DNA from: an uncultured Eubacteriales bacterium
Lineage (GTDB): Bacteria > Bacillota > Clostridia > Christensenellales > Aristaeellaceae
Assembly (NCBI GenBank): GCA_902774025.1
Contig: CACYGY010000003.1
Location: 17,480-81,479 of the forward strand
Reading direction: 5' to 3'
DNA: 64,000 nucleotides
Shown here: piece by piece, positions 10,918 through 46,043 of the stretch
Layout of the letters: every line of letters begins with the position of its first letter
How positions within the stretch are numbered: position 1 is the stretch's first letter
The notes under the pieces: model-generated
What the model was told of the DNA's origin: nothing
Seen by the model: the letters and a program-made list of their open reading frames with translations, nothing else
The model's database searches: none
Made by a program: the position numbers and the translations under genes

Positions 10918-10942
10918 ACGCGGCTCCTTTTTATCTGATTTT

Positions 10943-30577: not shown

Positions 30578-31990
30578 TCAGTTCTTGCGGGCAAAGCGGA
30601 AATAGTTTCTGGCATTGTTGTAACTGATATCCGCCACAATCTTTTTCAGGGTTTCCATGTCATCGGGATAGAAGCCCTGTTCCACCCACTCGCCGAAGAG
30701 ACGGCAAAGAATCCGGCGGAAATACTCATGCCGGGGATAGCTCAGGAAGGAACGGCTGTCGGTGAGCATGCCCACAAATCCGGCCAGATAGCCCAGGCTG
30801 GCCAGGGAGCGGAGATGATCCGTCATGCCGTCGAAGTGATCATTGAACCACCAGGCGGAGCCGTGCTGGATCCTGCCTACAGCTTCGCTGTTCTGGAAAC
30901 AGCCCAGGATGGTGTCAATGGCGGCGTTGTCGCAGGTGTTCAGGGAGTAGAGGATGGTCCTGGGCAGCTTGCCCATATCCTCCAGAGCGCCCATGAAGGC
31001 CGCGGTCTGAGTGGAAGGCGCGGTGTTGTCCACGCAGTCAAAGCCGGTGTCCGGGCCCAGGTCCCGGAAGGTAACGGGATTGTTGTTCCGGCGGCAGCCA
31101 TAGTGCAGCTGCATGACCCAGCCCCGGTCATGATATTCCCCGGCCAGGAAGGTCATGCAGGCGAACCTGAACACGGCGGATTCCTGGGGCGTGGGCATGA
31201 CGTTCTCCAGACGGGCCTTGAAAATGCGTTCCACTTCCTCTTCGGGAGCGGGGGCGTACATGACATAGTCCAGGCCGTGATCGGAGAGGCTGCAGTTGTG
31301 GGCGGCAAAGAAATCAAGACGGCGCTTCAGGGCCTCCTTCAGGTCTGAAACGGAAGCGATTTTCATGCCTGCGGCCTTCTCCAGTTCTCTGAGGTAATCC
31401 ACGTAGGAGAGTTTGTCCAGGTCAATGGCTTTGTCCGGACGCCAGGCGGGGAGCACGGTGACGGGGAAGGAACTGTCCGCGGCCAGTTTTTCGTGCCAGA
31501 TGAGGTCGTCCACGGGGTCATCCGTGGTGCAGATGGTGTCCACATGACTCATCTGAATCAGGCCGCGGCTGGTGTAACCGGGACTCCGAAGCTTTTCGTT
31601 GGCCAGCTTCCAGACTTCCGGTGCGGTTTTCGCATTGAGAATGCCGTCATAGCCGAAGAAACGGCGCAGTTCCAGGTGAGACCAGTGATGCAGGGGATTG
31701 CCGATGGAATTCCCCAGCACTTCCGCGTACTTCAGGAACTTTTCCTCATCCGGCGCGTTTCCGGTGATGTACTTCTCCTCCACCCCGGCGCTGCGCATGA
31801 GTCTCCACTTGTAGTGGTCGCCCCCCAGCCAGACCTGGGTGATGTTGTCATAGCGGATATCCATGTAGATTTCCCGGGGGCTGAGGTGACAGTGATAGTC
31901 AATAATGGGGCACTTTTCCGCCACCTCATGATAGAGCTCCCTGGCACATTCCGTGTTCAGCAGGAAATCCTGATCCATAAATGCGCGCAT
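30578..31990 (-). CDS. uxaC: Glucuronate isomerase
   Basis: N-terminus MRAFMDQDFLLNTECARELYH...IIDYHCHL is characteristic of UxaC, with a length of about 470 aa. Confidence 0.95.
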   Translation of the reverse strand: MRAFMDQDFLLNTECARELYHEVAEKCPIIDYHCHLSPREIYMDIRYDNITQVWLGGDHYKWRLMRSAGVEEKYITGNAPDEEKFLKYAEVLGNSIGNPLHHWSHLELRRFFGYDGILNAKTAPEVWKLANEKLRSPGYTSRGLIQMSHVDTICTTDDPVDDLIWHEKLAADSSFPVTVLPAWRPDKAIDLDKLSYVDYLRELEKAAGMKIASVSDLKEALKRRLDFFAAHNCSLSDHGLDYVMYAPAPEEEVERIFKARLENVMPTPQESAVFRFACMTFLAGEYHDRGWVMQLHYGCRRNNNPVTFRDLGPDTGFDCVDNTAPSTQTAAFMGALEDMGKLPRTILYSLNTCDNAAIDTILGCFQNSEAVGRIQHGSAWWFNDHFDGMTDHLRSLASLGYLAGFVGMLTDSRSFLSYPRHEYFRRILCRLFGEWVEQGFYPDDMETLKKIVADISYNNARNYFRFARKN

Positions 31991-32022
31991 TCTATTCCTC
32001 CTGACCAGTCTGACTGGCTGTT

Positions 32023-32661
32023 TCAGCCCCGGATTTCCCGGGCGATGCCGGCCGCTTCACGGACCAGGCGTTCAATCTCGTCAAATTTGCCTTCCTTTAC
32101 CAGACTGCCGCTGACCATCCAGCTGCCGCCGCAGGCCACGATCCGGTCATAGGCCAGATAATCCCGCACATTGGCCGCATTGATGCCTCCGGTGGGCATG
32201 AAGCGAAGGTTCACATAGGCCGCCGCCAGGGCCTTGATCATCTTCAGACCGCCGGAGGGCTCCGCCGGGAAGAATTTCAGGACGTCCAGGCCCAGTTCCA
32301 TGGCTGCCTCGATTTCTGTGGGTGTGCAGACACCGGGCGTCATGGGAACGCCCTTCTTCAGAACATGCTCGGTGACCCGGGGATTGAATCCGGGGCTGAC
32401 CACGAAGGTGGCACCGGCGTCAATGGCCCGGTCCGCCTGCTCAATGGTAAGCACCGTGCCGGCGCCGATGATCATGTCCGGGTAGGCTTTGGCCATGCGG
32501 CGGATGGATTCCTCCGCGGCATCGGTGCGGAAGGTGACCTCGGCGCAGGGCAGGCCGCCCGCCATGAGCTTTTCGCCCAGAGGGAGGGCATCCCCGGCAT
32601 CATTGAGCACCACGACGGGCACGATGCCGATGGTCTGAAGCCGTTTCATCATTTCTGTCAT
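32023..32661 (-). CDS. eda: KDPG / 4-hydroxy-2-oxoglutarate aldolase
   Basis: Eda pattern GIVPVV..., EVTFRT, GAGTVL, LKFFPAE (Schiff-base Lys context) and PTGGI. ATG 32661 lies 6 nt after AGGAGG. Confidence 0.9.
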   Translation of the reverse strand: MTEMMKRLQTIGIVPVVVLNDAGDALPLGEKLMAGGLPCAEVTFRTDAAEESIRRMAKAYPDMIIGAGTVLTIEQADRAIDAGATFVVSPGFNPRVTEHVLKKGVPMTPGVCTPTEIEAAMELGLDVLKFFPAEPSGGLKMIKALAAAYVNLRFMPTGGINAANVRDYLAYDRIVACGGSWMVSGSLVKEGKFDEIERLVREAAGIAREIRG

Positions 32662-32745
32662 GCTGATTTCCTCCTTGACGATGGACGTGCAAAAACGACA
32701 AAAGTATTTAACCACATCCGTCCTGAAAAGAAAAGGGCTGTTTTC

Positions 32746-33978
32746 TCACGGGCGGCAGCTGCCCATTTCCCGGAACATGGTCAGAACCAGCAGATTCCAG
32801 TTGATAAAACCGCCGTTCATGATGGGATCGCCGGTGAGGGGAGAGTAGAATTCGTGGAGGCATCCGGTTTTTTCCAGATCCTCTGACAGAAGGTGCAGGG
32901 ACTGCTCTGCGATCCTTTCGGCATCCTCCCGGTAGCCGTAGTTCATAAGCCCCCGGAATACGCAGTAGTTGGTCACCAGCCAGACGGGCCCCAGCCAGTT
33001 GGAGGGATTGATGGTTTTCTCCAGATTGAACATGGGTTCATTCATGGCCAGGGAAGGAATGCCCCAGGGGGCGGCAAAGGTATCGGCACACAGGATCTGC
33101 TCACGGAGGGCTCCGGCCTGCTCCCGGGTGGCGAACCCCGCCAGCAGGGGCAGAAAGCCTGACCAGACCCGTATGCGGATGGGCAGGCCCTTCCAGAAGA
33201 CCCCGAGCCCCTGGTGAAACCAGTCATACCTGCGGGTATGCACGTCCACATCCAGGGAATAATAGAAGCGGTCCCGGGGATCCCACAGATGGGTCTGGAT
33301 GGAGCGGATCAGGGCCTGCCGCTCAGCGGCCCAGGGACTTCCGTCTCTTCCCAGAGCCAGGCAGATTTCCTCCATGGCCTTCAGTTCCATGACCATAAAG
33401 CTGTTGAGGAAGATACTGGCGGTGCTGTCCGGGGGACGGCCGAAGGAGGCGGGATCATTGTCCACGCCGATCATGATGTCATCGTGCCAGACGTAGAGGC
33501 CGGTGCTTTCGTGAAAATAGGTGCGGTAGAAGCGGAAGTATTTTTCCAGCTGCTCCTGGAAAGGTTCCGCCCAGGAAAAGTCTTCCTGTTCCCGGGAGAT
33601 GAGGAGGATCTGCTGGCAGAGAAAAGGCTTGTGCATGTTCATCCGGACACCTTCCAGATGCCGCATGTTCAGGTAAGGCATGGGATACCTGTCCGCCTCC
33701 ACCATCATGGGGATATATCCGTCGGACAGCTGATGGTCCAGAAAGTTCAGGACGTTGCCCCGGGCGTGGGTCAGGACCTGCTGATCCAGAGACGGGGAAA
33801 GGCGGTCCCGGATGGAGAACAGGCCGTAGACGGACCAGTAGGTGTCCCAGTCCCAGCAGTTTCCATCATAGACGGAGCCCGGATCAATGAAGGGATAGTG
33901 AATGTATGCCCGGGGCTGCTTCAGAAGGCCGGGAATACTCTCCACGAGATAGTCTTCCAGATGATTCAGGGAACGCAT
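32746..33978 (-). CDS. GH63-like / MGH1-like (alpha/alpha)6 glycoside hydrolase
   Basis: Motifs CWDWDTYW, GVDNDPASFGRP and a C-terminal EFYSPLTG resemble the GH63 / mannosylglycerate-hydrolase / trehalase superfamily. ATG 33978 lies 5 nt after GGAGGA. Confidence 0.65.
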   Translation of the reverse strand: MRSLNHLEDYLVESIPGLLKQPRAYIHYPFIDPGSVYDGNCWDWDTYWSVYGLFSIRDRLSPSLDQQVLTHARGNVLNFLDHQLSDGYIPMMVEADRYPMPYLNMRHLEGVRMNMHKPFLCQQILLISREQEDFSWAEPFQEQLEKYFRFYRTYFHESTGLYVWHDDIMIGVDNDPASFGRPPDSTASIFLNSFMVMELKAMEEICLALGRDGSPWAAERQALIRSIQTHLWDPRDRFYYSLDVDVHTRRYDWFHQGLGVFWKGLPIRIRVWSGFLPLLAGFATREQAGALREQILCADTFAAPWGIPSLAMNEPMFNLEKTINPSNWLGPVWLVTNYCVFRGLMNYGYREDAERIAEQSLHLLSEDLEKTGCLHEFYSPLTGDPIMNGGFINWNLLVLTMFREMGSCRP

Positions 33979-34010
33979 GGCATCCTCCAAAACACGGTCA
34001 GGGCACAGCG

Positions 34011-34040
34011 GAAGGCAGGAGAAACCGGTCTCCTGCCTTC
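34011..34040 (-). other. Perfect 12-bp intercistronic stem-loop between the GH127-like and downstream GH63-like genes
   Basis: GAAGGCAGGAGA-AACCGG-TCTCCTGCCTTC with no U tract, inside a 79-nt gap. Confidence 0.6.
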
Positions 34041-34057
34041 TGCTGTATTCCTTGGGT

Positions 34058-35761
34058 TCAGTTCTTTGGTCTGGACTGCTGGGTGGGGCCGTAATTGGCG
34101 GCACCGCCGAAGGTGACGTCCTCAGGTCCGGGCAGGACCGGAGGAAGGCTCAGATCCCGCTGGTAGAGACGCAGATGCTCCCCCGGGGGATCCATGGCGA
34201 TGACGTCCGGGCCGCGCCAGGACACGGTATAGACCCGGCCGGCGGCCTCCTCCCGGCGCTGCACGGTTTCCATGGGGAAAAGGAGCTCCACACGGCTGAG
34301 CGCGGGGACGGGATCCGTGAGGATCAGACCCTTTTCCAGACGGAAGGGATGGGGCTGCCGGTTCACCAGGCAGGTGAAGTTCTGTCCCATGTAGGGATAG
34401 TACCGGAAAGCGACGGGCCTGTCCCGGAAGGGGGTCAGGCAGATACGGCCTTCGTCGGGAATCCAGCTTTCCATCTCCCAGTCTGCTGTTTTGCGGCAGA
34501 AGGGGAAGTTCACCGTCAGCAGGGAACCTTCCTCCGTGACGGCCCTGTCCCAGATCAGGGCAATGGCCATGGGGGCCGTGCCGGCGCAGCATCCCGCGAT
34601 GGAGCGGAATTTGGACAGGGCGATGCTGTTGGGGAGGGAACCGCCGGTAAACCCGCCCGCCATGCGGTCGTCCAGATGCTTCCAGGTCTTGCCTTCCGCG
34701 TCCGGCCGGTCATTGTCCACCTGGACATACCCGGTATAGTTCATCTGATTCTCCACCAGATGATTCCGGGAGAAGAGGAGCATGTCTTCCCAGTACTGGT
34801 CATATCCCTTCCGGATCAGGCGGTCCGCCAGGACCAGCATATCCTTGATGCAGCAGGTTTCGCAGTGTTCCTCCTGCATGGGATGCCACTGGGCGTATTC
34901 AGGCACCCACCCGAAGGAGGAGGATATGGACCGGACATAGTCATAGATTCCTCTGGCGGCCCGGAGGTATTCGTCATTTCCGGTGATTTCCGTCAGGTCG
35001 CACAGACCGCAGGCGGTCCACGTGGCGGAATGGACATGGCCAAAGAAGGCGTACTGCCAGTTGAGATACCGGGAGGGGCCCAGAAGATGATTGGCCAGAC
35101 CCAGGGCCAGATCCAGGGCGACGGGATCCCCTGTGTCCATGTACCGTTCCGTAAGGGCGGGGATCAGGACGCTGTGGCGGATGGGCTGTTCACCCCGGCC
35201 GGTATACCGGGTCAGATCGAATCCTCCCTCAAGGAGGTATACATCATTGGGAAACTCATAGATGGGTCTGTCTTCCGGCGTGTCCCCGCTCCAGAAGGTT
35301 TTGACTTCCCGCTGCACGACAAGTCCGCGCATCCCCCGCACAAGCCCGGAGGTTTTCGCCTGAAGATCGGCGTCATCCGGATACTTCCGGAGCATCCGGT
35401 TCAGGGCGGGAAGGATATAGCCCATCTCATGGAAGGAGGAGTGCATGGTATGGGTCCAGGGATAGCGGGCATGGTATCTCAGTCCCTGCGGGCCCCAGGA
35501 GGAGCGGAGGAAATCCTCAAAGGAATGAAGCACATCCATGCCTTCCCGGGTCTGAAGCACATGCATGCAGCTGTCCAGCCCCTCATACCAGGAACCCACC
35601 AGTTCCGCATCATCCACCCGGCAGTGGGCCGCCTCGGCGGGCTTGAGATTGGGAAGGATGAGCCAGTAGGGCAGATGATTCCGCTCGGGGTCCACCATAT
35701 GGGTGAGATAGTGATGGGCGTGTTCAGCCATGGAACGGGGATCAAAGGAACGGTAACGCAT
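34058..35761 (-). CDS. Putative glycoside hydrolase with a GH127-like Glu/Cys metal-site motif
   Basis: An E-T-C triad (HCETCC) followed 88 residues later by a GCC pair resembles the Glu-x-Cys ... Cys-Cys zinc/nucleophile arrangement of GH127 beta-L-arabinofuranosidases. AAGGAGG SD. Confidence 0.5.
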   Translation of the reverse strand: MRYRSFDPRSMAEHAHHYLTHMVDPERNHLPYWLILPNLKPAEAAHCRVDDAELVGSWYEGLDSCMHVLQTREGMDVLHSFEDFLRSSWGPQGLRYHARYPWTHTMHSSFHEMGYILPALNRMLRKYPDDADLQAKTSGLVRGMRGLVVQREVKTFWSGDTPEDRPIYEFPNDVYLLEGGFDLTRYTGRGEQPIRHSVLIPALTERYMDTGDPVALDLALGLANHLLGPSRYLNWQYAFFGHVHSATWTACGLCDLTEITGNDEYLRAARGIYDYVRSISSSFGWVPEYAQWHPMQEEHCETCCIKDMLVLADRLIRKGYDQYWEDMLLFSRNHLVENQMNYTGYVQVDNDRPDAEGKTWKHLDDRMAGGFTGGSLPNSIALSKFRSIAGCCAGTAPMAIALIWDRAVTEEGSLLTVNFPFCRKTADWEMESWIPDEGRICLTPFRDRPVAFRYYPYMGQNFTCLVNRQPHPFRLEKGLILTDPVPALSRVELLFPMETVQRREEAAGRVYTVSWRGPDVIAMDPPGEHLRLYQRDLSLPPVLPGPEDVTFGGAANYGPTQQSRPKN

Positions 35762-35770
35762 ACATCCTCC

Positions 35771-37456
35771 TTACGCTTCGGGAATGCCGAAGAGAGACGG
35801 ATTTTCCAGCATCATGGCAGCGCAGAGGGTGGCCGTCCAGCCATAGTCCCGGATGGTCTGGTAGCGCACCTCCGGGGCATAGGGCTCCACAACCGGCCCC
35901 TTGCGGTAAAGCGCTCTCGGACTGTTCAGGCCCTGTGGGTCATACATTTCGTAGACCACCCCGTCGGTGAGATAGAACCGGCGGATGTTCTCCACTGTTT
36001 TCAGGATCAGGCTGTCGGCAAGCTCTGTCATGCCATAGGCCCTCAGGCCCAGGGCCGTCATGTAGTTCATATTGATCCATACGGGTCCCCGCCACATATC
36101 CGTCCCGTACAGGGGATGGGAGCGGGCGATGGTGGGCAGGGGAAGCGGGGTGCCGAAGGCATCCGGGTCCGTAAGCGCCCGGGCCATTTTTCCGGCCATT
36201 TCCGGGGTGGGAATCCCGGCCAGGAGGGGGAGGAAGGAGGCGCAGGAGAAAACGAGGGTCTTTTCTCCGCTGCGAAGGTCCAGATCGGTATACAGTCCCG
36301 ATTCCTCGTCCCAGAGACAGCGGTTCACCCGCTCCTTCAGATCCCGGGCCTGCCTGTCCCAGTCTTCCCCGTCTTCGCCGAGGCAGGACAGGATTCCGGC
36401 CATGCACTGCATTTCCTGGACCATGAAGGTGCAGAAGTCCACGCAGCCCATGGGCCGGGGATGGTCAAAGCGGGGAGAATTGTCCATGCCGCTTTCGTCA
36501 CAGCGGTTCCTGGGCATGTCCTCCCGGATATACCAGCCGTACAGTCCTGTTTCCGCGTCCATGCGGTTTTCCCGGTTCCATTCCAGGTACCGCCGGAGCT
36601 TTGGCACGGCCCGGGCCGCAAAGTCCCGGTCGCCGGTTCTTTCCAGATACCGCAGAATCCCCCAGGCAAGGACGGGGGGCTGGGTGATGCCGGAAACGGT
36701 ATGGGGCCTGGCCATGTGGGGAATCATCCCGGAGCTCTGCTGGGTGTCCAGAACGGACTGAAGAGCGTCCCGCGCCAGTTCCGTTTCCATGTGGATCATG
36801 CCGAAACTGTGGAAAACGCTGTCCCAGAGCCAGAGCATGGCATGGGGGATACGGTCCGGAGTGGTCCATCTCTGGCGGAACATGCCGCAGGGACTGTAGA
36901 CCTGGGAGCGCATGACGGAGATGCACTTGAGGAGGAGCTGCCTGTCCTCTGCCTTTTCCGGCATGCGGTCCCGGAAAGCTCTGTAGTAATTCAGACGCTT
37001 GTCCCGGAGGGTCTCCACTTCCCGGGGGGTGACGGGCACGGCTTCCCGGAGGGACAGGGTGAAAACGGTGCCCTCCTCCCTGTCTTCCCGGAAAAGATAG
37101 AATCCGCAGTTTTCCGGAGTTCCTTCCGTGTCCACCATCCGCAGGCGCAGGGAGCCCGGGGGGCAGAGGCCGGCGACGGTGACCTGGTCCAGAAAGGTGA
37201 GGATCAGGGGAAATTCATGGCCCCCGCGGTCCGTGAGAAACGCGAGAATCAGATCCGAGCTCACCAGGTCGTAGCGAATATCCCGGATATACCGCAGGGA
37301 AAAGTACAGGTCCAGGGCTTCCTCACGGCCCCGGAGACGGACGCCCAGCAGGTCGCCCAGCAGGGAGCCGTTCATACATTCCGGGGGACAGCAGGGACCG
37401 TCCAGGCCGGAAAAGGCAAACAGGGCACCCTGGCCCCAGACATTGGGCATGATCAT
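35771..37456 (-). CDS. GH63-like / MGH1-like (alpha/alpha)6 glycoside hydrolase
   Basis: Motifs LWLWDSVFH, CDESGMDNSPRFD and GPVWINMNY are typical of the GH63/MGH1 catalytic domain. The ATG overlaps the PHP gene stop (ATGA). Confidence 0.7.
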   Translation of the reverse strand: MIMPNVWGQGALFAFSGLDGPCCPPECMNGSLLGDLLGVRLRGREEALDLYFSLRYIRDIRYDLVSSDLILAFLTDRGGHEFPLILTFLDQVTVAGLCPPGSLRLRMVDTEGTPENCGFYLFREDREEGTVFTLSLREAVPVTPREVETLRDKRLNYYRAFRDRMPEKAEDRQLLLKCISVMRSQVYSPCGMFRQRWTTPDRIPHAMLWLWDSVFHSFGMIHMETELARDALQSVLDTQQSSGMIPHMARPHTVSGITQPPVLAWGILRYLERTGDRDFAARAVPKLRRYLEWNRENRMDAETGLYGWYIREDMPRNRCDESGMDNSPRFDHPRPMGCVDFCTFMVQEMQCMAGILSCLGEDGEDWDRQARDLKERVNRCLWDEESGLYTDLDLRSGEKTLVFSCASFLPLLAGIPTPEMAGKMARALTDPDAFGTPLPLPTIARSHPLYGTDMWRGPVWINMNYMTALGLRAYGMTELADSLILKTVENIRRFYLTDGVVYEMYDPQGLNSPRALYRKGPVVEPYAPEVRYQTIRDYGWTATLCAAMMLENPSLFGIPEA

Positions 37457-38889
37457 GAATCGTTCCTCCCCATGGATCCTTCTTCAAAGCCGAAGTATTT
37501 CCGGCGCATTCTCTGTGTCCGGCCGTGGATGGCATTCAGGACCTGAAGGGCCTCCTGCTTTTCCTCTCCGGACCCCGTGACATACTGTTTCATGGCCCGG
37601 CCTTCCTCAAAGCACAGTTCGTCATGCAGAGGGAAATAGTGCCGCAGAAGGAAGCAGGCATACTGCACCAGGCGGAAATCCCCCACCAGACGGAATTCCC
37701 TGCTGATGGTGTCCACCGCCACGGAGCGGAAGGAGCGCACGGCTTCCAGCAGGTCTTCCCGGGTGTTGCGGGGGGCAAAGATGATGGTGGAGCAGATCAG
37801 GGCGTTGCGGTTGGTGGGATTGGAATTGTGACTGTCCGTGCTTCCCACGATGGGATACCGGAAACCCCGGGCCCTGTCCTCATAGTAGCGGGTGGTCTGG
37901 AACCCGTTCTGTTCGTAGTAGTTTTCACCCCCCAGCACCTCCAGGACATCAAAGAGGCGGTTCTCCAGGAGATAGTCATAGAGCCCCCGGGGGATATGGA
38001 ACACATCATGGATCCAGTAGGGATGGGGGAAGACTGCCAGGCCGCCGCTGCGCCGGATTTCCCCGAAGGCCCAGGTCATGCCCGCGGCGGGAATGGGATC
38101 CACACCCTGGGGAAAGGTCCGGCTGTCCAGAATGGCCTGAAGCGTCCTTTCATACTCTGCCTGGTTCATCACCGGGGGACACTGCCCTGTGAGGGAGCGG
38201 CTCAGATCGTCGGTGGGGATGTTGTCCACGTCATCCCGCTCAATCATGGCGTTGACGGAATAGGTGCCGCCCAGATTGATCATGTGGGGGTCGATGAAAT
38301 GATCAAAGGCTTTGGGCAGGTGCACCTCCTCACCGGGCAGGATGGTGAGGTCCACCGGGAGTTTCTCAAAAAAGCGCATGGCTTCGAGGGAAGGATAGTA
38401 CCGGCGGTGATCCGTGATGCAGATGAAATCGTATCCCTGTTTCCGGTAGTTGGCGCAGACCACCTCCGGACTCTGGCTGCCGTCGGAATAGGTGGTATGG
38501 ATATGCAGGTCTCCCAGATAGGGGAACATGCCGAAAAGATCCGGGGCGACGCAGTACACGCAGAATCTTTCCTGTTTCTCCCTTCCCCGGCTGTCCGTGT
38601 AGGGGATGTCCAGGAAGTATTCCTGCTCCTGTGTAAAGGTATGGCGGAAGCGGAGCACCCCTGTTTCGTCGCAGAGGCAGGTTATGCTCTGAAAATCGGA
38701 GGAAATGGGGAAGTATTCGGGCTTGCCTCCGTCAATGGCCTTGATGATGACCGTACATTCCTTTCCCGGCCGGAAACAGCCGGAAACACCCAGAGGGCGG
38801 ATGGTGATCTCCGTCTCCACACCCTGGCGGACAACCCGGGGAAACAGATCATAGCTGAAGAGATTTTCCTGCTCCACAGGGAACGCCAT
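37453..38889 (-). CDS. PHP-domain metal-dependent phosphoesterase with an N-terminal beta-domain of about 125 aa
   Basis: PHP motifs GDLHIHTTYSDGS, ICITDH, GEEVH and GSTDSH. ATG 38889 (MAFPVEQ) has better SD spacing than ATG 38898. Confidence 0.7.
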   Translation of the reverse strand: MAFPVEQENLFSYDLFPRVVRQGVETEITIRPLGVSGCFRPGKECTVIIKAIDGGKPEYFPISSDFQSITCLCDETGVLRFRHTFTQEQEYFLDIPYTDSRGREKQERFCVYCVAPDLFGMFPYLGDLHIHTTYSDGSQSPEVVCANYRKQGYDFICITDHRRYYPSLEAMRFFEKLPVDLTILPGEEVHLPKAFDHFIDPHMINLGGTYSVNAMIERDDVDNIPTDDLSRSLTGQCPPVMNQAEYERTLQAILDSRTFPQGVDPIPAAGMTWAFGEIRRSGGLAVFPHPYWIHDVFHIPRGLYDYLLENRLFDVLEVLGGENYYEQNGFQTTRYYEDRARGFRYPIVGSTDSHNSNPTNRNALICSTIIFAPRNTREDLLEAVRSFRSVAVDTISREFRLVGDFRLVQYACFLLRHYFPLHDELCFEEGRAMKQYVTGSGEEKQEALQVLNAIHGRTQRMRRKYFGFEEGSMGRNDS

Positions 38890-38906
38890 GCATATCATCC
38901 TTTCTT

Positions 38907-41129
38907 TCAGGTTCTGTTCTTGTCGGTATGAGAGGAATACTGCCTGTATTCGCTCAGTGTCATGCCGTAGTATTCCCGGAATTTTCCGGCAAAGTACTGA
39001 AGCCGGCTGTAGCCGATGGCCTCACAGATCTCCTCATTGGTCATTTCACCCTCCCGCAGGAGCCTGGCAGCGTGCTCCATGCGTTTTTTCTGCAGACAGT
39101 CCATGAGCTTTTCCCCGGTTTCCTGATGGAACACACGGCTCAGGTGTCCGGTGGAAATGCCCAGGGCATCCGCCACATACTGGGTGGACAGGTCCGCGGG
39201 GGGACACTTGTCAATGACCTGTCTGGCAAGGGTCACCATGCTCCGGTTTCCCGTGTCGCTTTCCTTTTTCAGGTATTCGGCCAGCTTCAGACAGTCGGAT
39301 TTCATCCGGGCCTCAAAGCTCTCAATGTCTTCCAGATGGTAATAGACCTGCATCAGGTCCTGGCCGTAAACGGCCTGGGGACTGGTGTGCACGTCAAAGG
39401 CCGCCTGGACCAGAAAGGCGCCGGTGAGCAGCATGACGGAGCGAACGGTACTCAGATAAGGGATCATGTTTCTCAGTTCCGTGACGATTTCCTCAATCCG
39501 CTGCATGGCCTCCTGGGTTTTTCCCGCCGCCGCCAGGCGGGGCAGGACCGCGAGGTGCACCATGATTCCGGCGATGACCCGGTCTGCGGAGGCATGTTCC
39601 TCTTCCGTGCGGAAAATGCAGACCCGGCGGTTCCGGTCAAAATAGCGTTCGGTCAGGGCTCTGCGGGCACAGCGGTAGGAGACCCCGAGGGGAGCGGTTC
39701 TGTCCACGGGAAGGCCGACACCGAAGGTGAGGGATGAATCGGGGGTGTCCCGGACCACCTCCTCCAGTCTTTCGGGGATCCTTTCCTCATCCTCCTTTTT
39801 CAGGTTCAGCAGGCAGATCCATTCCCGGCGTCTGGACTGGAAGATCTCCACCTGACAGTCCAGGGAGCGGAAGGCGGCGTTCAGGGCCTCCTCCTCTTCC
39901 CGGGCCGGGGCATCGCTGAGCATGAGGCACAGGAGCCGGTCATGGGGAAGCAGGATCCCCAGCTCAGGCAGGGAATGGGTGTAGACCGCCTCATCGCTGA
40001 TGAGGCTGTTCAGATAGGCCTCCCGCAGCTGCAGGCGGCTTTTTTCAATCTCCTGTTCCCGCTCCAGGCGGCTTTCCTCCATGTTTTCCAGCTGATTTTC
40101 CATCATGGAAAAGGTCTGGTCCGGGCTGTACAGGCGGCCCTGGCGGGATTCCGGCAGCTGCATCTGGCGGACCAGGCGCTTCATGGGATAGGCGTAGTGC
40201 TTGGAGTGCACATACAGAACCAGACCGAGGGCGAGGAGCATCACCAGAATGGTGATGAGAATCCACCCCATGAAGGAAGGCTCCAGGGTCAGAGGCATTT
40301 GTGTCCTGACAATGGCGAGCTCCCAGTCCATGATATGGGCGCGCGTACAGGCAGTCATGGCCTTCTGTCCGTCGGGCAGGGTAACCTCCTCTCCCGACAG
40401 AAGAGCCGCCCCCTGATCTGCAAGGTCGGGTGATTCTGAGCACAGAACGGTTCCCTTTCCATCCATGAGCACGAGCGAATCCTGACTCTGCAGGCTCCTC
40501 AGGCAGGAGCGGACGGAGGCCAGGAAGGACTCTTCGCGACAGGAGAGGATCAGGACAGGCTCCTCATCCGGTGTGAACACACCGGGATAACGCCGGAGAT
40601 GGCTGATCCAGCCCTGGACATCCAGGCCTTCGGTTTCTGTCCGCCTGAGCCACAGGGATTCCCCGTAACCCAGCTGTTCCCAGTAGGCGTCCATCCGGTC
40701 CGGCCGGTATTTCTTATCCTCCAGAAAGCGCACGCCCCGGGTGCCCACCAGAAGACGGGAGGCGGGAAAGTACAGGTCCAGCTCCTCCACGGCGGGGAAG
40801 GCAGACTTCACCTCCGTGAGAAGGCTCTTCAGCTTCAGGATCTGTCCGGAGGGGGGCCGGGAAGCTCTGGCCAGGGTGGCGATGGAGGACTCTGAGGCAT
40901 CCCTGGCGGCAATGCGCAGGGGAATCTGCCGGGTCATGGCGTCCACCAGCTGAGAGTCCATGTTGTTCACAAGGGCAGAAAGCTGGGCGGTGAGATGATC
41001 CTGGTTTTCCCGGCGGAGCATATCCTGTCTCAGGGCGTACAGAAGACATCCGAGAAGCAGGGCCACCACCAGAAAGATGGCTGTCACATAAAGGGTGACC
41101 ACATTGATTTTCCGCTCTCTGTTTTTCAA
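38907..41129 (-). CDS. Transmembrane one-component regulator: extracytoplasmic sensor domain, cytoplasmic linker and AraC-type HTH
   Basis: TM helices at about res 11-33 and 295-316 flank a loop of about 260 aa. The C-terminal 100 aa carry the AraC double HTH (ALGISTGHLSRVF...ICEAIGYSRLQYFAGKFREYYGMT). Confidence 0.8.
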   Translation of the reverse strand: MKNRERKINVVTLYVTAIFLVVALLLGCLLYALRQDMLRRENQDHLTAQLSALVNNMDSQLVDAMTRQIPLRIAARDASESSIATLARASRPPSGQILKLKSLLTEVKSAFPAVEELDLYFPASRLLVGTRGVRFLEDKKYRPDRMDAYWEQLGYGESLWLRRTETEGLDVQGWISHLRRYPGVFTPDEEPVLILSCREESFLASVRSCLRSLQSQDSLVLMDGKGTVLCSESPDLADQGAALLSGEEVTLPDGQKAMTACTRAHIMDWELAIVRTQMPLTLEPSFMGWILITILVMLLALGLVLYVHSKHYAYPMKRLVRQMQLPESRQGRLYSPDQTFSMMENQLENMEESRLEREQEIEKSRLQLREAYLNSLISDEAVYTHSLPELGILLPHDRLLCLMLSDAPAREEEEALNAAFRSLDCQVEIFQSRRREWICLLNLKKEDEERIPERLEEVVRDTPDSSLTFGVGLPVDRTAPLGVSYRCARRALTERYFDRNRRVCIFRTEEEHASADRVIAGIMVHLAVLPRLAAAGKTQEAMQRIEEIVTELRNMIPYLSTVRSVMLLTGAFLVQAAFDVHTSPQAVYGQDLMQVYYHLEDIESFEARMKSDCLKLAEYLKKESDTGNRSMVTLARQVIDKCPPADLSTQYVADALGISTGHLSRVFHQETGEKLMDCLQKKRMEHAARLLREGEMTNEEICEAIGYSRLQYFAGKFREYYGMTLSEYRQYSSHTDKNRT

Positions 41130-41156
41130 AAACGGTCCTCCTCAACGGTGATTTCC

Positions 41157-42197
41157 TCAGGAGATTCTATCACCGTCCGGGGAAGGACGCCAGTGTGTCT
41201 CCACGTCCCGGACAAGGACCATTTCTGTCCGGATGGATTCAGGGCATGTCAGGTCCAGATCCACGATTCTCCCACCCCGCAGGGAATCTCTCTCTTCCCC
41301 GCTCAGACCGTACGCCTGATAACCGATGCTGCCGTCATAGCCCAGGCGGATGCCGCAGTACAGACCGTCGAAGGTGTTGTTGTGGTCATGACCGGTGAAG
41401 ATGGCCCGGACGTCTCCCCGCTGCAGTACGGCGGCAAAGAGGCCGGAATTGACGGTGGAGCAGCAGATGCGCTCCCTGTTTTCACCTCGCATGCCCGTTT
41501 CCCGGGGGTTTCGGATGAGGGCGTGAAACTCCGGCAGGGGAATATGGAAGCACATGAGGGAGGGAATCCGGCCGCCGTTTTCCTTCTCCAGGGTCAGGGA
41601 GGTCTGGAAATACCACTGGACCTGCTGGAAGCAGATGAATTCGTCGTCCGATTTTCCCCAGGGAGGATCCGGTAAAAGCAGATCCTTTATCAGTTCCCCC
41701 GGCTGAGCCAGAGGGCAGGATGGATGCCGCAGGTCCTGATGGGAGTCCAGAGCCCAGATGCCGAAGACGGTCCGGCCCCGGGCGTCCCGGATGGGCAGAA
41801 AATAGTTGCCCACCCCCGGGATGTCTTCCGGCCCCGGGCGGGAGAGGCAGTGGGGAAAGGACTCATAAAGGGTTTCCTGCCATGCCTTGGACAGAACAGG
41901 CGTCTCGTCGTGATTCCCGAACACATGAGCCCAGGGAATGTTCCGTTCTTCCATGGGGGTGACCAGGCGGGTTATGACAGAGCGGAGATGGTCCTCGTGC
42001 TCGCATCCCCCCTCCTGATCCCCCAGGAGCATGACCAGGTCCGGATGGGTATATGCCAGCAGTTTTTCCACGGCGTCGGGGGTTCGCCGGTCATCCCCCG
42101 GGCGCAGGTGTGCGTCTGACAGGAGGAGGATGCGGAAATGCCCCTCAGGGTTAAAGGTCAGGGGAATGCGCGGGGCAAACTGATCCAGGAGCAGCAT
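41157..42197 (-). CDS. Calcineurin-like metallophosphoesterase
   Basis: Motifs ILLLSDAHL, GDQ, GNHD and TGHDHNN. AAGGAGG SD. Confidence 0.8.
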   Translation of the reverse strand: MLLLDQFAPRIPLTFNPEGHFRILLLSDAHLRPGDDRRTPDAVEKLLAYTHPDLVMLLGDQEGGCEHEDHLRSVITRLVTPMEERNIPWAHVFGNHDETPVLSKAWQETLYESFPHCLSRPGPEDIPGVGNYFLPIRDARGRTVFGIWALDSHQDLRHPSCPLAQPGELIKDLLLPDPPWGKSDDEFICFQQVQWYFQTSLTLEKENGGRIPSLMCFHIPLPEFHALIRNPRETGMRGENRERICCSTVNSGLFAAVLQRGDVRAIFTGHDHNNTFDGLYCGIRLGYDGSIGYQAYGLSGEERDSLRGGRIVDLDLTCPESIRTEMVLVRDVETHWRPSPDGDRIS

Positions 42198-42215
42198 AAT
42201 TCGCCTCCTTCGGTG

Positions 42216-42254
42216 AAAAAAAGGGCCGGAGACCGCCTGAAGGCGGCCTCCGGC
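42216..42254 (-). terminator. Strong intra-locus terminator/attenuator directly after the solute-binding-protein gene
   Basis: Minus strand reads GCCGGAGGCCGCC-TTCA-GGCGGTCTCCGGC (13 bp, one G-U pair), then CC and TTTTTTT. The SD of the next gene begins 5 nt later. Confidence 0.75.
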
Positions 42255-42266
42255 TGCTCGCAGGGA

Positions 42267-43850
42267 TTATTTGGAGTGATACCACTCGTTGGCTTCTTCG
42301 GTGATGACTTTGCCGCCCATCTGATACCAGGACTCCACAAAGCTGTCGAAGCTGTCCACGGGCATCTCACCGGTGATGATGGCCACGTAGGTGGTCTGAC
42401 GCAGCGTATCCATGCTGGTCCAGTAGTTGGGCATGGAAGCGGTGGTGATGGGAAGCATGGTGTTGGAATAGCCGCCGGTTCTGAACTGGGGCAGGGACTT
42501 GGCCCATTCGTACTGGGCGGGCTTGACCTTCATGGCGAAGAAGGGATTCTGCAGGGTGTTGAACATGTTGGTGTGGGAACCTTCGTCCACCCGCTCATGG
42601 CCTTCCTTGGCCACATAGCCCAGGAGCTCGTCATAGTCGTACTGATCCGACTCCAGATCCCAGTTCCAGATCTTCAGCCAGGTGTCGAAATCGGAACCGA
42701 TGGTGTTGATCATCTCAAGGATCCTCGCCACCTTGGCGGGCTGGTCCTTCAGCTTGTAGCTGAACACCACGGCTTCGTCGGTGGTCAGGCCCCAGCTCTC
42801 GCCGCCCTGCTTTCCGTCAGGACCGGTGGGGTTGAAGCCGATGATCATGTTCTCATAGCCCACGGTGGAGGCAAAGGTGCGCATGGTCCGTCCATACTGG
42901 AAGTTGCCGCCCTCGCCGGTCTCCTCATTCTTGGGTCCGTCGAAGTCAGGCGCCAGGTGATAGTAGGCACCGGAGGAGGAGAAGCCGATCTGGCCGTTTT
43001 CGAAGGGAACGGACAGAGCCCAGTAGCCGCCCTGATTCTCGCCGGTGATGAACTCGGGATCGATCAGGCCGTCCTTGTACCACTTGGCCAGCAGGGCCAG
43101 GGCATCCTTCATGCCGGGATACACGGCGCCGTAAACGAGATTGCCCTCGCCGTCATCCACCCAGCGGTCCGGCAGAGCGCCGAAAGCGCCGAAGATGGGG
43201 TTCATGCCGGTGTTGCTCAGGGCATAGGTGTTCTTGATGCCGTCGCCGTCGGGATCGTCATTGGCGAAGTGATAGAACACTTCCTCACACTCTTCCAGGG
43301 TCATGGGAACCTTGCCGTTGTCATAGCCGAACTTCTTCAGCCAGTCAGCGCGCCAGAAGGGAGCGTAGTTGAAGTAGCCGTCGCCGTTGACGCGGGGCAG
43401 GCCATAGTTCTTGCCGTTGTAGGACACGTTGTCAAAGCAGCCGGGGTCATACTCGATCAGCCAGGCATAGCCTTCGGGCATGCACTGCTTGACGACTTCC
43501 AGGGGCAGTTCCATGACCACGCCCTGCTTGACGAACTTGGAGAACTGGGTGGCATTCTGGAGCATGAACACGTCCGGGATCTCGCCGCCCATGATCCGGG
43601 TGGTGAGGAGTTCGTCATAGTTCTCTCTCTCCAGGAACCACATATCCAGTGTCACATTGAACTTTTCTTCCAGCCACTTCACCACGGTGTCGCCTTCCGC
43701 GATGGGTTCGGTGTCATGACCGGCCAGCCAGGCGATGGTGATCTTTTCCGCGGGATCGGAGACATAGGCGCTCAGATCCACTTCGGCCAGGGCTCCGGCG
43801 ACGGACATGAGCATCACCAGAGCTGTCAGCATTGCCAACCACTTCTTCAT
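42267..43850 (-). CDS. Large extracellular solute-binding protein of a carbohydrate ABC importer (LplA/LipO-like)
   Basis: Signal peptide MKKWLAMLTALVMLMSVAGALA, a length of about 527 aa, position next to two sugar-type permeases, and an AAGGAGG SD. Confidence 0.8.
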   Translation of the reverse strand: MKKWLAMLTALVMLMSVAGALAEVDLSAYVSDPAEKITIAWLAGHDTEPIAEGDTVVKWLEEKFNVTLDMWFLERENYDELLTTRIMGGEIPDVFMLQNATQFSKFVKQGVVMELPLEVVKQCMPEGYAWLIEYDPGCFDNVSYNGKNYGLPRVNGDGYFNYAPFWRADWLKKFGYDNGKVPMTLEECEEVFYHFANDDPDGDGIKNTYALSNTGMNPIFGAFGALPDRWVDDGEGNLVYGAVYPGMKDALALLAKWYKDGLIDPEFITGENQGGYWALSVPFENGQIGFSSSGAYYHLAPDFDGPKNEETGEGGNFQYGRTMRTFASTVGYENMIIGFNPTGPDGKQGGESWGLTTDEAVVFSYKLKDQPAKVARILEMINTIGSDFDTWLKIWNWDLESDQYDYDELLGYVAKEGHERVDEGSHTNMFNTLQNPFFAMKVKPAQYEWAKSLPQFRTGGYSNTMLPITTASMPNYWTSMDTLRQTTYVAIITGEMPVDSFDSFVESWYQMGGKVITEEANEWYHSK

Positions 43851-43899
43851 ACAGAGACCTCCTTAAGATTGTTTATTTCAGGCACTTCCCGGTGCCCGG

Positions 43900-43917
43900 G
43901 GTTCAGGTTCAGGTTCA
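43900..43917. repeat. Hexamer GGTTCA x3 (minus strand TGAACC x3), giving three in-frame TGA codons at the end of the permease gene
   Basis: Read directly. The first TGA (43915-43917) is the annotated stop. Confidence 0.7.
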
Positions 43918-44832
43918 GCCTTTCAGGGAGCCGATGAGGACGCCCTTGACGAAATACTTCTGCAGGAAGGGATAGACACAGATGATGGGGATGGTGGCCA
44001 GCATGATGGAGGCCGCCCGCAGGGTGACGATATCCGTGTCCGTCTGATTGGCCACCGCCTCCGCCACCGACGTCATTTCCTTGGAGTCAGTGAGGATGAT
44101 GCGGCGGAGCACGACCTGCAGCACATACTTGTTGGGATCGGTGATATAGAGGAGACAGTTGAAATAGGCATTCCAGTTGCTGACGATGACCCACAGGCTG
44201 ATGGTGGCCAGAATGGGCATGCTCAGGGGAAGGATCACCCGCACCAGAACCTGCAGGGAGCTGGCGCCGTCAATGGTGGCGGCTTCCTCCAGTTCCGTGG
44301 GCAGGGTCATGAAGTAGTTTCTGGCGATGATCACATGGGAGGAGGAAACGCAGGCCGGGAGAATGATGGCAAAATAGGAGTTTCGCATGCCCAGGGTGTT
44401 GTTCACCAGAAGATAGGTGGGAATCATGCCGCCGGAGATGAACATGGTGGTGATGATCATGCCGGTGAACAGTCCACGGAAGGGAAGGTCCTTCTTGGAC
44501 AGGGGATAGCTGCTGAGCACCACGCCCACAAGGGAACAGGACCAGCCCAGGAGCACCACCTTGATGGTGTTGGCGTATCCCTTCCACAGATAGGACGCGT
44601 TGAACATGCGGATGTAGGCGTCCCAGCTCCAGGACTGTGGCCAGAGCTTGAACCCTGCGGCGGAGGCATAATCCGGAGAGGTGAAGGAGGTGACGAGGAC
44701 ATGCCAGTAGGGATAGAGGAAAGTCAGTCCCATGAGAAGGAAAACGATGGTAAGGATGGTCTGGAACAGGCCCTCACCCCGGTTTTCCAGAACCCGGGTG
44801 CTCCCCTTCATTTTTTTCTTTGCCTTTGTCAT
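43915..44832 (-). CDS. Carbohydrate ABC transporter permease (LplC/YtcP-like)
   Basis: Six helices with an EAA-loop-like LEEAATIDGASSLQV. GGAGGGAGG SD. Confidence 0.85.
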   Translation of the reverse strand: MTKAKKKMKGSTRVLENRGEGLFQTILTIVFLLMGLTFLYPYWHVLVTSFTSPDYASAAGFKLWPQSWSWDAYIRMFNASYLWKGYANTIKVVLLGWSCSLVGVVLSSYPLSKKDLPFRGLFTGMIITTMFISGGMIPTYLLVNNTLGMRNSYFAIILPACVSSSHVIIARNYFMTLPTELEEAATIDGASSLQVLVRVILPLSMPILATISLWVIVSNWNAYFNCLLYITDPNKYVLQVVLRRIILTDSKEMTSVAEAVANQTDTDIVTLRAASIMLATIPIICVYPFLQKYFVKGVLIGSLKG

Positions 44833-44847
44833 ACGTCCTCCCTCCCC

Positions 44848-45783
44848 TTACCACAGTCCGTATTCATTGACCCGGCGGGAAATGAAATTGGCGCCGAGGA
44901 CAAGAAGCAGGGAAATGACATTGCGGAACAGATCCGCTGCCGTGGAATAGGAATAGTCCATGTTGGTGATGCCCTGGCGGTAGATGTAGGTGCCCAGCAC
45001 GTCGCCCACGGAGTAGACGGCAGGATTCAGGAGGTTGAACACCTGATCAAAGTTGTCATCCACCAGGCCGCCCACCGCCAGGATCAGCATGATGGTCACG
45101 GTGGGCAGAATGCCCGGAAGGGTCACATGCCAGATCCGCTTCCAGCGCCCGCAGCCGTCCACCCGGGCCGCGTCATAGAGCTCCTCATTGACGCCACCGA
45201 GGGCTGCCAGATAGATAATGGAACTCCAGCCGATGGTTTTCCAGATATTGGTCACCACCAGTGTTCCCCGGAAATACTTGGGATTCCCGAGAAAATAGAT
45301 GGGGTCTCCCCCGAAGATACGGATCAGGGTGTTGACGGGGCCGCGGGTGGGAGAGAGCAGTTCCATGAAAATACCGGTGAGAATGACCCAGGAGATGAAA
45401 TGGGGAAGATAGCTGATGCTCTGGGTGACCCGCTTGAACCCCGGGGAGCGCAGCTCATTGAGCAGAAGCGCCAGGATAATGGGAGCGGGAAACCCGAAGA
45501 GAAAATTCAGACCAGAGAGGATCAGCGTATTCCGGAACACATTGCCGAAATCGTAGGAGGAGAAGAGCCGGTTGAAATTATCCAGGCCGACCCAGGGACT
45601 CCCGGTAATGCCGTCCAGAAGACGGAATTCCTTGAAGGCCAGTGTGATGCCGTAAAGGGGACCGTATCGGAAGAGGATCCACCAGAGCATCACGGGGATG
45701 ATCATCAGAAGGTGCAGTCGATGCTTCCGGATCCGTTTCCCGAGGGGCACTTTTCCGCTGACTGCTGTGTGAGGGGAAGACAT
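44848..45783 (-). CDS. Carbohydrate ABC transporter permease (LplB/YteP-like)
   Basis: Six helices with the EAA loop LYDAARVDGCGRW. The start is ambiguous between ATG 45783 (MSSPH) and ATG 45828, and neither has a strong SD. Confidence 0.8.
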   Translation of the reverse strand: MSSPHTAVSGKVPLGKRIRKHRLHLLMIIPVMLWWILFRYGPLYGITLAFKEFRLLDGITGSPWVGLDNFNRLFSSYDFGNVFRNTLILSGLNFLFGFPAPIILALLLNELRSPGFKRVTQSISYLPHFISWVILTGIFMELLSPTRGPVNTLIRIFGGDPIYFLGNPKYFRGTLVVTNIWKTIGWSSIIYLAALGGVNEELYDAARVDGCGRWKRIWHVTLPGILPTVTIMLILAVGGLVDDNFDQVFNLLNPAVYSVGDVLGTYIYRQGITNMDYSYSTAADLFRNVISLLLVLGANFISRRVNEYGLW

Positions 45784-46043
45784 GCTGTCACCCGCCTTTC
45801 CCGGAAAAGAATGTGCATTTTTGACCATTGCGTGGCCCCATGCTAACAGACAGAAGGAGCGCTCACAAGACCAATAATCTGATCCGGAAAGCCAAAAAGA
45901 TGATCAAAAGGCTCGAATCTGACCAGATTTTCCATCTTTTATGTTCGATTTTTGGATATCAGATGTTTGATGCGATCTGGGCGGCCAAAAAAAGGGCGGA
46001 GCCGGAGGGCCTGTCAGGATTCAGGATCCGATCTTCGCCGGGC

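Follow-up and report, generated by a model that had tools for sequence, protein, structure and literature searches.

Gram-positive glycan-utilisation loci are already known as a kind, and individual parts of the locus described here have counterparts in characterised systems. Clan GH-P of the glycoside hydrolases, made up of GH127 and GH146, is defined by a Cys3-Glu zinc site and a cysteine nucleophile (PMC10850190). Among the large binding proteins of carbohydrate importers, Smon0123 binds unsaturated glycosaminoglycan disaccharides, and AlgQ1 and AlgQ2 bind alginate oligosaccharides (PMC5430744). In the present study, we analysed a stretch of 64,000 nucleotides from an uncultured Eubacteriales bacterium (contig CACYGY010000003.1; the whole stretch is called the window), in which distant relatives of both kinds, a solute-binding protein (SBP) and a protein that we call GH127L, are encoded in one array of eleven successive open reading frames (ORFs) on the minus strand, at positions 30578-45828. 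The initial annotation of this DNA had placed eleven head-to-tail genes here with gaps of -4 to 84 nt; all eleven ORFs lie where it had put them, and gene calls on three identical metagenomic contigs return the same eleven genes with intergenic spacings of 15, 64, 69, 27, 17, -4, 9, 79, 84 and 32 nt. Judged by its homologues elsewhere, the array is a composite of a conserved core (34058-45828), comprising an ATP-binding cassette (ABC) importer, a metallophosphoesterase, a transmembrane AraC regulator, a PHP phosphoesterase, a GH63-like hydrolase and GH127L, and a lineage-specific tail (30578-33978) with a second GH63-like gene, eda and uxaC. We give an even chance to the reading that the core is a conserved, uncharacterised catabolic module with which uncultured Clostridia of the gut and rumen dismantle a small phosphorylated glycan in the cytoplasm, and that the tail is a local matter.

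Two sets of loci were compared: 80 genome loci centred on GH127L homologues, searched with the eleven window proteins and the flanking genes, and 83 loci centred on the metallophosphoesterase. Within the first set, matches to the permeases were found in 16-17 loci, to the binding protein in 11, to Metallophos in 21, to the first GH63-like hydrolase (GH63a) in 9, and to the PHP and AraC proteins in 4 each; no locus matched eda, uxaC, GlgX, GDSL or GH28, and eda and uxaC were likewise absent from all 83 metallophosphoesterase loci. In the closest relatives, which are rumen Clostridia, the two permease genes and the SBP gene stand in a row with a PHP or a metallophosphoesterase gene, divergent from or adjacent to GH127L, after which comes either a short PHP-like gene or, in other loci, a metallophosphoesterase plus a GH63 gene. 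The core-bearing loci are, by our locus handles, L002, L003, L007, L008, L009, L013, L015, L017, L020, L022, L086, L092, L094, L098 and L100, and in L086 an ulvan-lyase-like protein occupies the position of GH127L. Wherever contig flanks are long enough to tell, orthologues of the window metallophosphoesterase (MPE-a) with at least 50% identity adjoin ABC importer genes, and their loci frequently also hold GH127L, GH63a, PHP and the AraC regulator. The adjacency of SBP and metallophosphoesterase genes, and the co-occurrence of ABC, PHP, metallophosphoesterase, GH63a and GH127L genes, recur in rearranged orders that extend to genomes labelled Spirochaetes and Kiritimatiellae; the Sphaerochaeta-type loci L084 and L093 have a GH88 gene and a short PHP gene as partners, with an RGL11-like gene added in L084. 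Conservation of the neighbourhood, which had been set beforehand as the test of the whole array, thus came out divided, in that the core (ABC, metallophosphoesterase, PHP, GH63a, GH127L, AraC) recurs and the second GH63-like gene (GH63b), eda and uxaC do not.

The most consistent companions of GH127L are phosphoesterases. When all ORFs of the 80 loci were clustered without bias as to family, Metallophos emerged as the commonest neighbour, at a median distance of 69 bp, and further recurrent neighbours were two more Metallophos paralogue groups, metallo-beta-lactamase (MBL) proteins and Exo_endo_phos (EEP) proteins. The gene c23, which directly follows GH127L in some relatives, encodes a CehA/McbA PHP-like hydrolase, and a type I phosphodiesterase (NPP) is present in L016 and L058. 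Altogether, among the 62 GH127L loci that span 12 kb or more, 39 contain a phosphoesterase-type gene, with at least two classes in 20 of them (Metallophos in 31, PHP in 11, MBL in 11, EEP in 5, NPP in 3). Metallophos genes reach 8.9 per 100 kb in the nearest 2.5 kb around GH127L and thin out to 0.4 per 100 kb at 7.5-10 kb, a 20-fold difference. Because unrelated phosphoesterase folds converge on one genomic position, we infer a shared substrate that carries a phosphate ester, and this is the main argument for the phosphorylated-glycan reading. The two phosphoesterases of the window, which the initial annotation had singled out as noteworthy, are accordingly no accident of this array, since across many genomes both the importer and the GH127-like gene have a metallophosphoesterase or PHP-type gene as a conserved partner. 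The same annotation had been unable to name a matching pathway, and our literature searches (GH127 with metallophosphoesterase, calcineurin-like phosphoesterases in polysaccharide utilisation, and metallophosphoesterase, GH63, GH88 and PHP in the rumen) gave no description of the combination either.

Both window enzymes pass their Pfam thresholds with canonical metal ligands intact, which bears out the families first proposed for them. MPE-a (346 aa, 41157-42197; coordinates of array genes all refer to the minus strand) scores 49.6 bits with PF00149 Metallophos against a cutoff of 21.5, and its ligands D28xH30, GD60, GN95H96, H218 and GH270xH272 are invariant in 20 homologues. Its AF2 model (pLDDT 85) matches SMPDL3A, Lmo2642, purple acid phosphatases, Mre11, Rv0805 and GpdQ in fold, so that, as modelled, MPE-a has an ordinary two-metal fold, and none of its close relatives is characterised; these generic superfamily matches were the only ones from the fold search and give no clue to substrate. 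The PHP-family metallohydrolase (478 aa, 37453-38889) scores 32.4 bits with PF02811 (cutoff 26.4) and has an extra N-terminal domain of ~120 aa and a CehA/McbA domain at 69 bits. The ligands HxH (129/131), DH (160/161), EExH (187-190), H289 and DxH (352/354) are invariant in six orthologues. Orthologues of 59-66% identity lie in L008, L009, L013, L017, L086 and L100. As revealed by the hydropathy scan, the five enzymes have neither signal peptide nor membrane segment and are therefore cytoplasmic. Separately, four consecutive Metallophos paralogues, 23-44% identical to the window enzyme, were observed in each of four metagenomic contigs (L110, 7243-11300; L117, 2547-6600; L121, 3905-8100; L122, 8913-12996), two of the arrays lying near a GFO/IDH/MocA gene.

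GH127L itself (567 aa, 34058-35761) is a putative cysteine glycosidase related to GH127/GH146, recognised through profile and fold searches. Against the Pfam GH127 model (PF07944, DUF1680) it gives a partial match of 21.9 bits, below the cutoff of 24.9; no NCBIfam model matched it, phmmer against the PDB found no GH127 structure, and a 14-member ortholog profile reached BT3674 at E = 7e-4 only. The placement in GH127/GH146 becomes solid only through two further approaches. In the structure prediction (AF2, pTM 0.82), Foldseek ranks 1-21 are all GH127/GH146 (E 6e-12 to 1e-8, ~14% identity), and a broad 45-member profile finds BT3674 (GH127) at 8.8e-18, Ara127N at 4e-14, BT0349 (GH146) at 4e-12 and HypBA1 at 5e-12. 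In the alignment to this profile, cEtC falls over CETC of BT3674, and CC over CC(P) of BT3674 and Ara127N; H46, E301, C303, C391 and C392 are kept among the 45 members (relatives of 21-60% identity), the latter four at 90% or more. By sequence and model, GH127L thus has the clan GH-P fold and the residues of the Cys3-Glu zinc site (a predicted metal site), and is a distant clan GH-P member outside both Pfam-defined families; its residues make it probably a cysteine glycosidase. As for the other families named in the initial annotation, Pfam and NCBIfam upheld them, with the SBP lacking any family match and the GH127-like call reached only below threshold in Pfam.

With the beta-L-arabinofuranosidases of GH127/GH146, among them HypBA1 of Bifidobacterium longum and BT3674, BT0349 and BT1003 of Bacteroides, GH127L shares the (alpha/alpha)6 barrel, the C-terminal beta-sandwich and the Glu-x-Cys and Cys-Cys motifs of the zinc site. 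Like HypBA1, it would be a cytoplasmic exo-enzyme acting after import, and in Paenibacillus it is placed after an extracellular GH43. The arrangement in the extensin-oligosaccharide (hypBA) cluster of B. longum is similar, with HypBA1 following the GH43 HypAA. However, GH127L is ~80-200 residues shorter than the solved GH127/GH146 chains and, at ~14% identity and below the PF07944 threshold, far from them. Its own sequence is highly conserved (57-70% identity) across Clostridia, Paenibacillus and Kiritimatiellae, and it is usually partnered by phosphoesterases and not by GH121 or GH43. There are 551 homologues at E ≤ 1e-5, nearly all unannotated ("hypothetical"), and the best 120 are 56-71% identical over their full length. 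Their genome loci fall into three groups, namely rumen and gut Clostridia (Acutalibacteraceae, Ruminococcaceae, Candidatus Limiplasma), Kiritimatiellae/Verrucomicrobia metagenome-assembled genomes, and cultured Paenibacillus and Gorillibacterium. An exhaustive profile search returned 1472 clusters (50% identity) in the wider GH127L superfamily, and members of the family abound in metagenomes from the rumen and from the horse, kangaroo and human gut.

Two observations on GH127L loci stand somewhat apart. In Acutalibacteraceae (L024, L025, L036, L040, L047, L063, L080, around 10001-11690) the GH127-like gene belongs to a different conserved set, consisting of a geranylgeranyl-reductase-family flavoprotein, GH127L, a metallo-beta-lactamase, an alpha/beta hydrolase and a xylose-isomerase-like TIM barrel, with a cupin-AraC protein and a Metallophos protein of 560-580 aa divergently encoded. 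A hydroxyproline-arabinoside/extensin interpretation of these loci was considered and dropped, the flavoprotein being like geranylgeranyl reductase and not like D-amino-acid dehydrogenase. Loci L016 and L058 share a near-identical gene order with Firmicutes-style ABC genes, and the label Phocaeicola massiliensis on the L058 bin may be a binning error.

Some findings weigh against a phosphorylated glycan. No phosphoesterase-type gene is present in 23 of the 62 large GH127L loci; in Paenibacillus and Gorillibacterium, GH127L is accompanied by a large GH43 and by no phosphoesterase, and GH127L itself therefore needs no phosphorylated substrate. Among proteins with Metallophos, PHP and MBL folds there are also hydrolases of non-phosphate substrates and enzymes directed at nucleotides, so that the glycan phosphate is drawn from gene association. 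In addition, the queries of the neighbourhood counts were picked from neighbours already seen, which biases the counts toward finding them, and the hairpin at the border of core and tail has no U-tract, so that read-through into the tail is entirely possible.

There is also an account, in our view unlikely, in which the substrate is an ordinary non-phosphorylated plant arabino-oligosaccharide from extensin, arabinogalactan-protein or a pectic side chain, and in which the phosphoesterase folds act on some other ester, a lactone, a carbamate, a sulfate or a nucleotide signal. In the Paenibacillus and Gorillibacterium loci (L030, L044, L051, L073, L076; genes upstream of 10001) GH127L lies immediately 3' of a GH43 of 1040-1540 aa, preceded by genes for an ABC importer, for an AraC-type response regulator and for a histidine kinase, and the Gorillibacterium GH43 protein that was scanned carries SLH domains; this layout, an ABC and two-component system with GH43 and GH127L, parallels the Bifidobacterium GH43-GH121-GH127 extensin cluster. 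Elsewhere GH127L is found beside GH78 and GH29, and the GH63b family beside GH43, GH78, GH29 and GH140; the PHP proteins score highest with the CehA/McbA metallohydrolase model; and GDSL/PaeY-like esterases and a GH28 lie nearby in the window. It is hard, however, to explain five unrelated phosphoesterase folds at the same position by GH127L without a shared cleavage of phosphate esters, the canonical metal ligands of phosphoesterases are intact, and the pairing of EEP with GH92/GH125 in relatives mirrors the phosphatase-plus-mannosidase logic of Bacteroides yeast-mannan loci. For the specific idea that these folds serve as sulfatases on ulvan- or glycosaminoglycan-like substrates, nothing was found in support.

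The remaining genes of the core supply import, regulation and a further hydrolase. Permease 1 (326 aa, 44848-45828), of CUT1/LplB type, matches PF00528 (BPD_transp_1) at 63 bits, and its orthologues of 66-81% identity adjoin GH127-like or metallophosphoesterase genes in other genomes; permease 2 (305 aa, 43915-44832), of CUT1/LplC type, also matches PF00528, and its conservation goes with that of permease 1 and the binding protein. The large SBP (527 aa, 42267-43850) has no Pfam or NCBIfam match. Its nearest solved relatives are Smon0123 (5gub) and AlgQ1/AlgQ2 (E ~4e-11), and its orthologues (58-86% identity) lie directly upstream of a metallophosphoesterase gene in many loci. Like the SBP, these solved proteins are large, of CUT1 type and partnered by two permeases; their ligands are acidic oligosaccharides. 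The match is limited to SBP residues ~78-273, and the relationship is too distant for a transfer of ligand specificity; in contrast to the Smon0123 and AlgQ systems, the window is without GH88, lyase or KduI/KduD genes. The signal peptide of the SBP, MKKWLAMLTALVMLMSVAGALA/EV, has no lipobox cysteine, which is atypical among the solute-binding proteins of monoderm Firmicutes. The AraC-type regulator (740 aa, 38907-41129; HTH_18, HTH_AraC, GGDEF_2) is a transmembrane one-component protein in which hydrophobic segments 6-38 and 280-310 flank a sensor region of ~240 aa, again by hydropathy scan, and 9 related loci hold homologues of it (35-41% identity).

The GH63-like/MGH1-like (alpha/alpha)6 hydrolase of the core, GH63a (561 aa, 35771-37456), scores 210 bits with PF22422 and 90 bits with PF03200. 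Its best solved relative is the mannosylglycerate hydrolase TTHA0978 (2.5e-24), with which the WLWDS, GITQPPV and ESGMDNSP motifs align, and its orthologues of 41-57% identity adjoin MPE-a or the GH127-like gene. GH63b of the tail (410 aa, 32746-33978; PF22422 122 bits, PF03200 38 bits) is 25% identical to GH63a, and its GVDNDP aligns with the acid-motif region of TTHA0978; gene calls on the identical contigs make 33978 its most likely start, rather than 34104. Both proteins lie above the Pfam MGH1-like and GH63 thresholds and keep the acid-motif region, whose residues presumably have the catalytic roles general to GH63. In this they resemble the GH63 glycosyl-glycerate hydrolases (Thermus TTHA0978 and mycobacterial glucosylglycerate hydrolase) and Escherichia coli YgjK, but GH63a has an extra N-terminal region of ~200 aa, and the NCBIfam equivalog cutoffs for glucosylglycerate/mannosylglycerate hydrolase are far from reached (88 bits vs 550 and 92 vs 625; the 88 bits are those of GH63a, and GH63b scores 27 bits). 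The setting also differs, being one of phosphoesterases and an oligosaccharide importer and not of compatible-solute metabolism.

In the tail, GH63b is followed by the KDPG/KHG aldolase gene eda (32023-32661; PF01081 235 bits, TIGR01182 264 bits vs cutoff 156), for which the gene calls on the identical contigs give a start at 32661 (212 aa), and by the glucuronate isomerase gene uxaC (30578-31990; NCBIfam equivalog NF002794, 579 bits vs cutoff 387). UxaC and Eda are thus confident equivalog or subfamily matches to the Ashwell hexuronate pathway (UxaC ... KdgK, Eda); yet the locus encodes only its first and last steps, neither conserved with the rest of the locus, and UxuA/B, UxaA/B and KdgK were not found among the annotated ORFs of the window, which hence hold no complete Ashwell operon. 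The GH63b family, with 1524 matches, resides elsewhere in operons of its own with histidine kinase, response regulator, SBP, permeases and GH43, or beside GH43, GH78, GH140-like and GH29 genes, and eda or uxaC was never found next to its homologues in other genomes. A conserved GH63b-eda-uxaC trio, with GH63b as a uronate-linked glycosidase, was rejected on account of these other contexts.

The transcription signals bear on the same border. A terminator-like hairpin with U-tract follows the SBP gene (42225-42254, minus strand; 13-bp stem with 11 G-C pairs, then a T-run), within a 69-nt gap ahead of MPE-a that folds at -35.1 kcal/mol (z = -3.2), and another follows uxaC (30534-30561, minus strand; 12-bp stem, then a T-run), within a 58-nt stretch folding at -24.2 kcal/mol (z = -4.9). 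These two had been listed as the sole terminators, and both are indeed present; overlooked was a third strong hairpin, that without U-tract, at 34000-34052 (minus strand), with a 12-bp perfect stem. It sits in the 79-nt gap between GH127L and GH63b, which folds at -35.7 kcal/mol (z = -3.6), a value equalled by 2 of 200 shuffles, and it may partly insulate the tail from the core. The promoter scan gave no more sites than the shuffled expectation, with no sigma-70-like promoter standing out, and so gives no help in delimiting transcription units; the Rfam scan of the whole window detected no riboswitch or leader.

Taking the tail at face value, one may suppose that all eleven genes form one operon for a phosphorylated, uronate-containing oligosaccharide, with UxaC and Eda as integral last steps. 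The tight spacing in one orientation, the absence of a U-tract terminator from MPE-a to uxaC, and the uronate oligosaccharides bound by the nearest solved SBP relatives all fit such a view, as do the modules (metallophosphoesterase/PHP/ABC or GH127L) that stand beside GH88, RGL11-like, ulvan-lyase-like or GH4 genes in L084, L093, L086, L016 and L058. We nevertheless regard it as having only a minor chance of being right: no eda or uxaC occurs in either set of loci, uronate-related genes are present in only 4 of the 62 large GH127L loci, GH63b belongs to other operons elsewhere, the mid-pathway genes UxuA/B or UxaA/B and KdgK are missing from the annotated parts of the window, and the -35.7 kcal/mol hairpin falls exactly at the border. 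Since eda and uxaC are in no related locus, GH63b is elsewhere in other genomes and a hairpin marks the boundary, we regard the tail as a local add-on, and going by these comparisons the hexuronate genes have accreted locally and lie outside the conserved pathway. That the locus "ends in hexuronate catabolism", as first annotated, is consequently true of this species only. Of the import of a uronate-containing, possibly phosphorylated oligosaccharide, proposed at the same time, the importer, the cytoplasmic enzymes and the uronate-binding SBP relatives agree; the uronate itself, with its related genes in those four large loci only, is weakly indicated.

Under the phosphorylated-glycan reading, the CUT1-type ABC importer with its AlgQ/Smon0123-like SBP would take up a small soluble glycan or glycoconjugate head-group, and the transmembrane AraC protein would probably sense the substrate outside the cell and turn the genes on. 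In the cytoplasm, the two-metal metallophosphoesterase and the PHP enzyme might strip a phosphodiester or phosphomonoester substituent, after which two exo-glycosidases, an inverting GH63/MGH1-like alpha-glycosidase and GH127L, would dismantle the sugar chain, the latter through a zinc-bound cysteine nucleophile that should act on a furanoside-type linkage. The tail (GH63b, Eda, UxaC), appended in this species, would at most channel released hexuronate into central metabolism. As to the substrate, close relatives of the core carry genes of the alpha-mannosidase families GH92 (directly after MPE-a in 5 loci) and GH125 (in 4 loci), EEP phosphatases in 8, a melibiase-like gene in 3 (with weaker matches in 2 more) and a GH78-like gene in 3, and L016 and L058 also hold GH4, GH88, two GFO/IDH/MocA genes and two xylose-isomerase-like TIM barrels. 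This gene content suggests a small glycoconjugate of plant or fungal origin that bears alpha-mannoside or alpha-hexoside features along with pentofuranoside and phosphate, and uronate in some lineages.

A related logic is reportedly at work in the yeast alpha-mannan loci of Bacteroides thetaiotaomicron, which combine GH92, GH125 and GH76 with the EEP-family phosphatase BT3783. Relatives of the core share with them GH92/GH125 and Exo_endo_phos, by which phosphate would be taken off before the mannosides are trimmed. In contrast, the core has Gram-positive-type ABC import and cytoplasmic enzymes, where Bacteroides has SusC/D and periplasmic processing; the window has no GH92, GH125 or EEP, and the Bacteroides loci have no Metallophos, PHP or GH127-like protein.

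A more specific form of the preferred reading, which names the most attractive candidate substrate but which we consider quite unlikely, is that the core is a pathway for the head-groups of plant, perhaps fungal, glycosyl-inositol-phosphoryl-ceramides (GIPCs), taken up as soluble inositol-phosphate glycans. A fungal GIPC phospholipase C frees such glycans from plant GIPC sphingolipids, and in the released glycans three to five pentoses, hexose or deoxyhexose are added to a core of hexose, uronic acid and inositol phosphate (PMC11496612). After AlgQ-like ABC import, the metallophosphoesterase and PHP enzymes would dephosphorylate them, GH127L would remove pentofuranose side chains, and the GH63-like, GH92 and GH125 enzymes alpha-hexose or alpha-mannose; glucuronate could pass to UxaC and Eda, and inositol to the GFO/IDH/MocA and xylose-isomerase-like TIM-barrel enzymes of several related loci. 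Such a composition would jointly account for the associations with phosphate, uronate, mannoside, pentose and rhamnosidase, and for the presence of uxaC and eda in the window. By analogy with the yeast-mannan loci, fragments of fungal phosphomannan would be a comparable alternative substrate. Finally, a chance juxtaposition, without common substrate, of a transporter operon, a regulator with assorted hydrolases, and the hexuronate genes, as the terminator-like hairpin after the SBP gene, the hairpin before GH63b and the unconserved tail might intimate, is very improbable given that the SBP-metallophosphoesterase adjacency and the ABC/PHP/metallophosphoesterase/GH63a/GH127L co-occurrence are conserved across many genomes, other phyla included, and that Metallophos enrichment near GH127L is 20-fold and distance-dependent.

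Although the general kind of locus is familiar, two of its elements appear undescribed. The first is a compact, strongly conserved and nearly unannotated family of probable cysteine glycosidases related to GH127/GH146. The second is a systematic link of GH127L to phosphoesterases, which would imply that bacteria degrade, by routes not yet worked out, a class of phosphorylated glycans from the diet or from microbes. If GIPC-derived glycans or fungal phosphomannan prove to be the substrate, models of herbivore gut metabolism would gain a new carbon and phosphorus source, and glycobiology new enzyme activities; in the former case, the head-group of the most abundant plant sphingolipid would have its first described route of catabolism.

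Around the array, the neighbours reported initially as CE12 esterases, a GH28 and a GlgX are present as two GDSL/PaeY-like esterases, a GH28 and a GlgX-like gene (CBM48 plus alpha-amylase) with a terminator of its own, and 3' of uxaC lie unrelated genes for a D-Ala-D-Ala dipeptidase and a DHO-dehydrogenase-like protein. The GlgX-like gene is separated from the GDSL pair by a C69 dipeptidase gene (48172-49632, minus strand) and a xylose-isomerase-like TIM-barrel gene (49645-50502, minus strand); TIM barrels of this type are recurrent GH127L neighbours elsewhere (12 loci), and the window copy is ~14 kb from GH127L. An ORF of 1189 aa (33977-37546, plus strand) runs antisense to three genes of the locus. 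Other long antisense ORFs are frequent in the window, which has 59% G+C, those scanned had no family match, and all of these, the 1189-aa ORF included, look like compositional artefacts rather than genes. Further along, at 60173-62044 (minus strand), a 623-aa OppC-type ABC permease (OppC_N plus BPD_transp_1) carries a block of RCC1-like repeats inserted at about residues 187-389, an extracytoplasmic insertion that is unusual for an oligopeptide permease.

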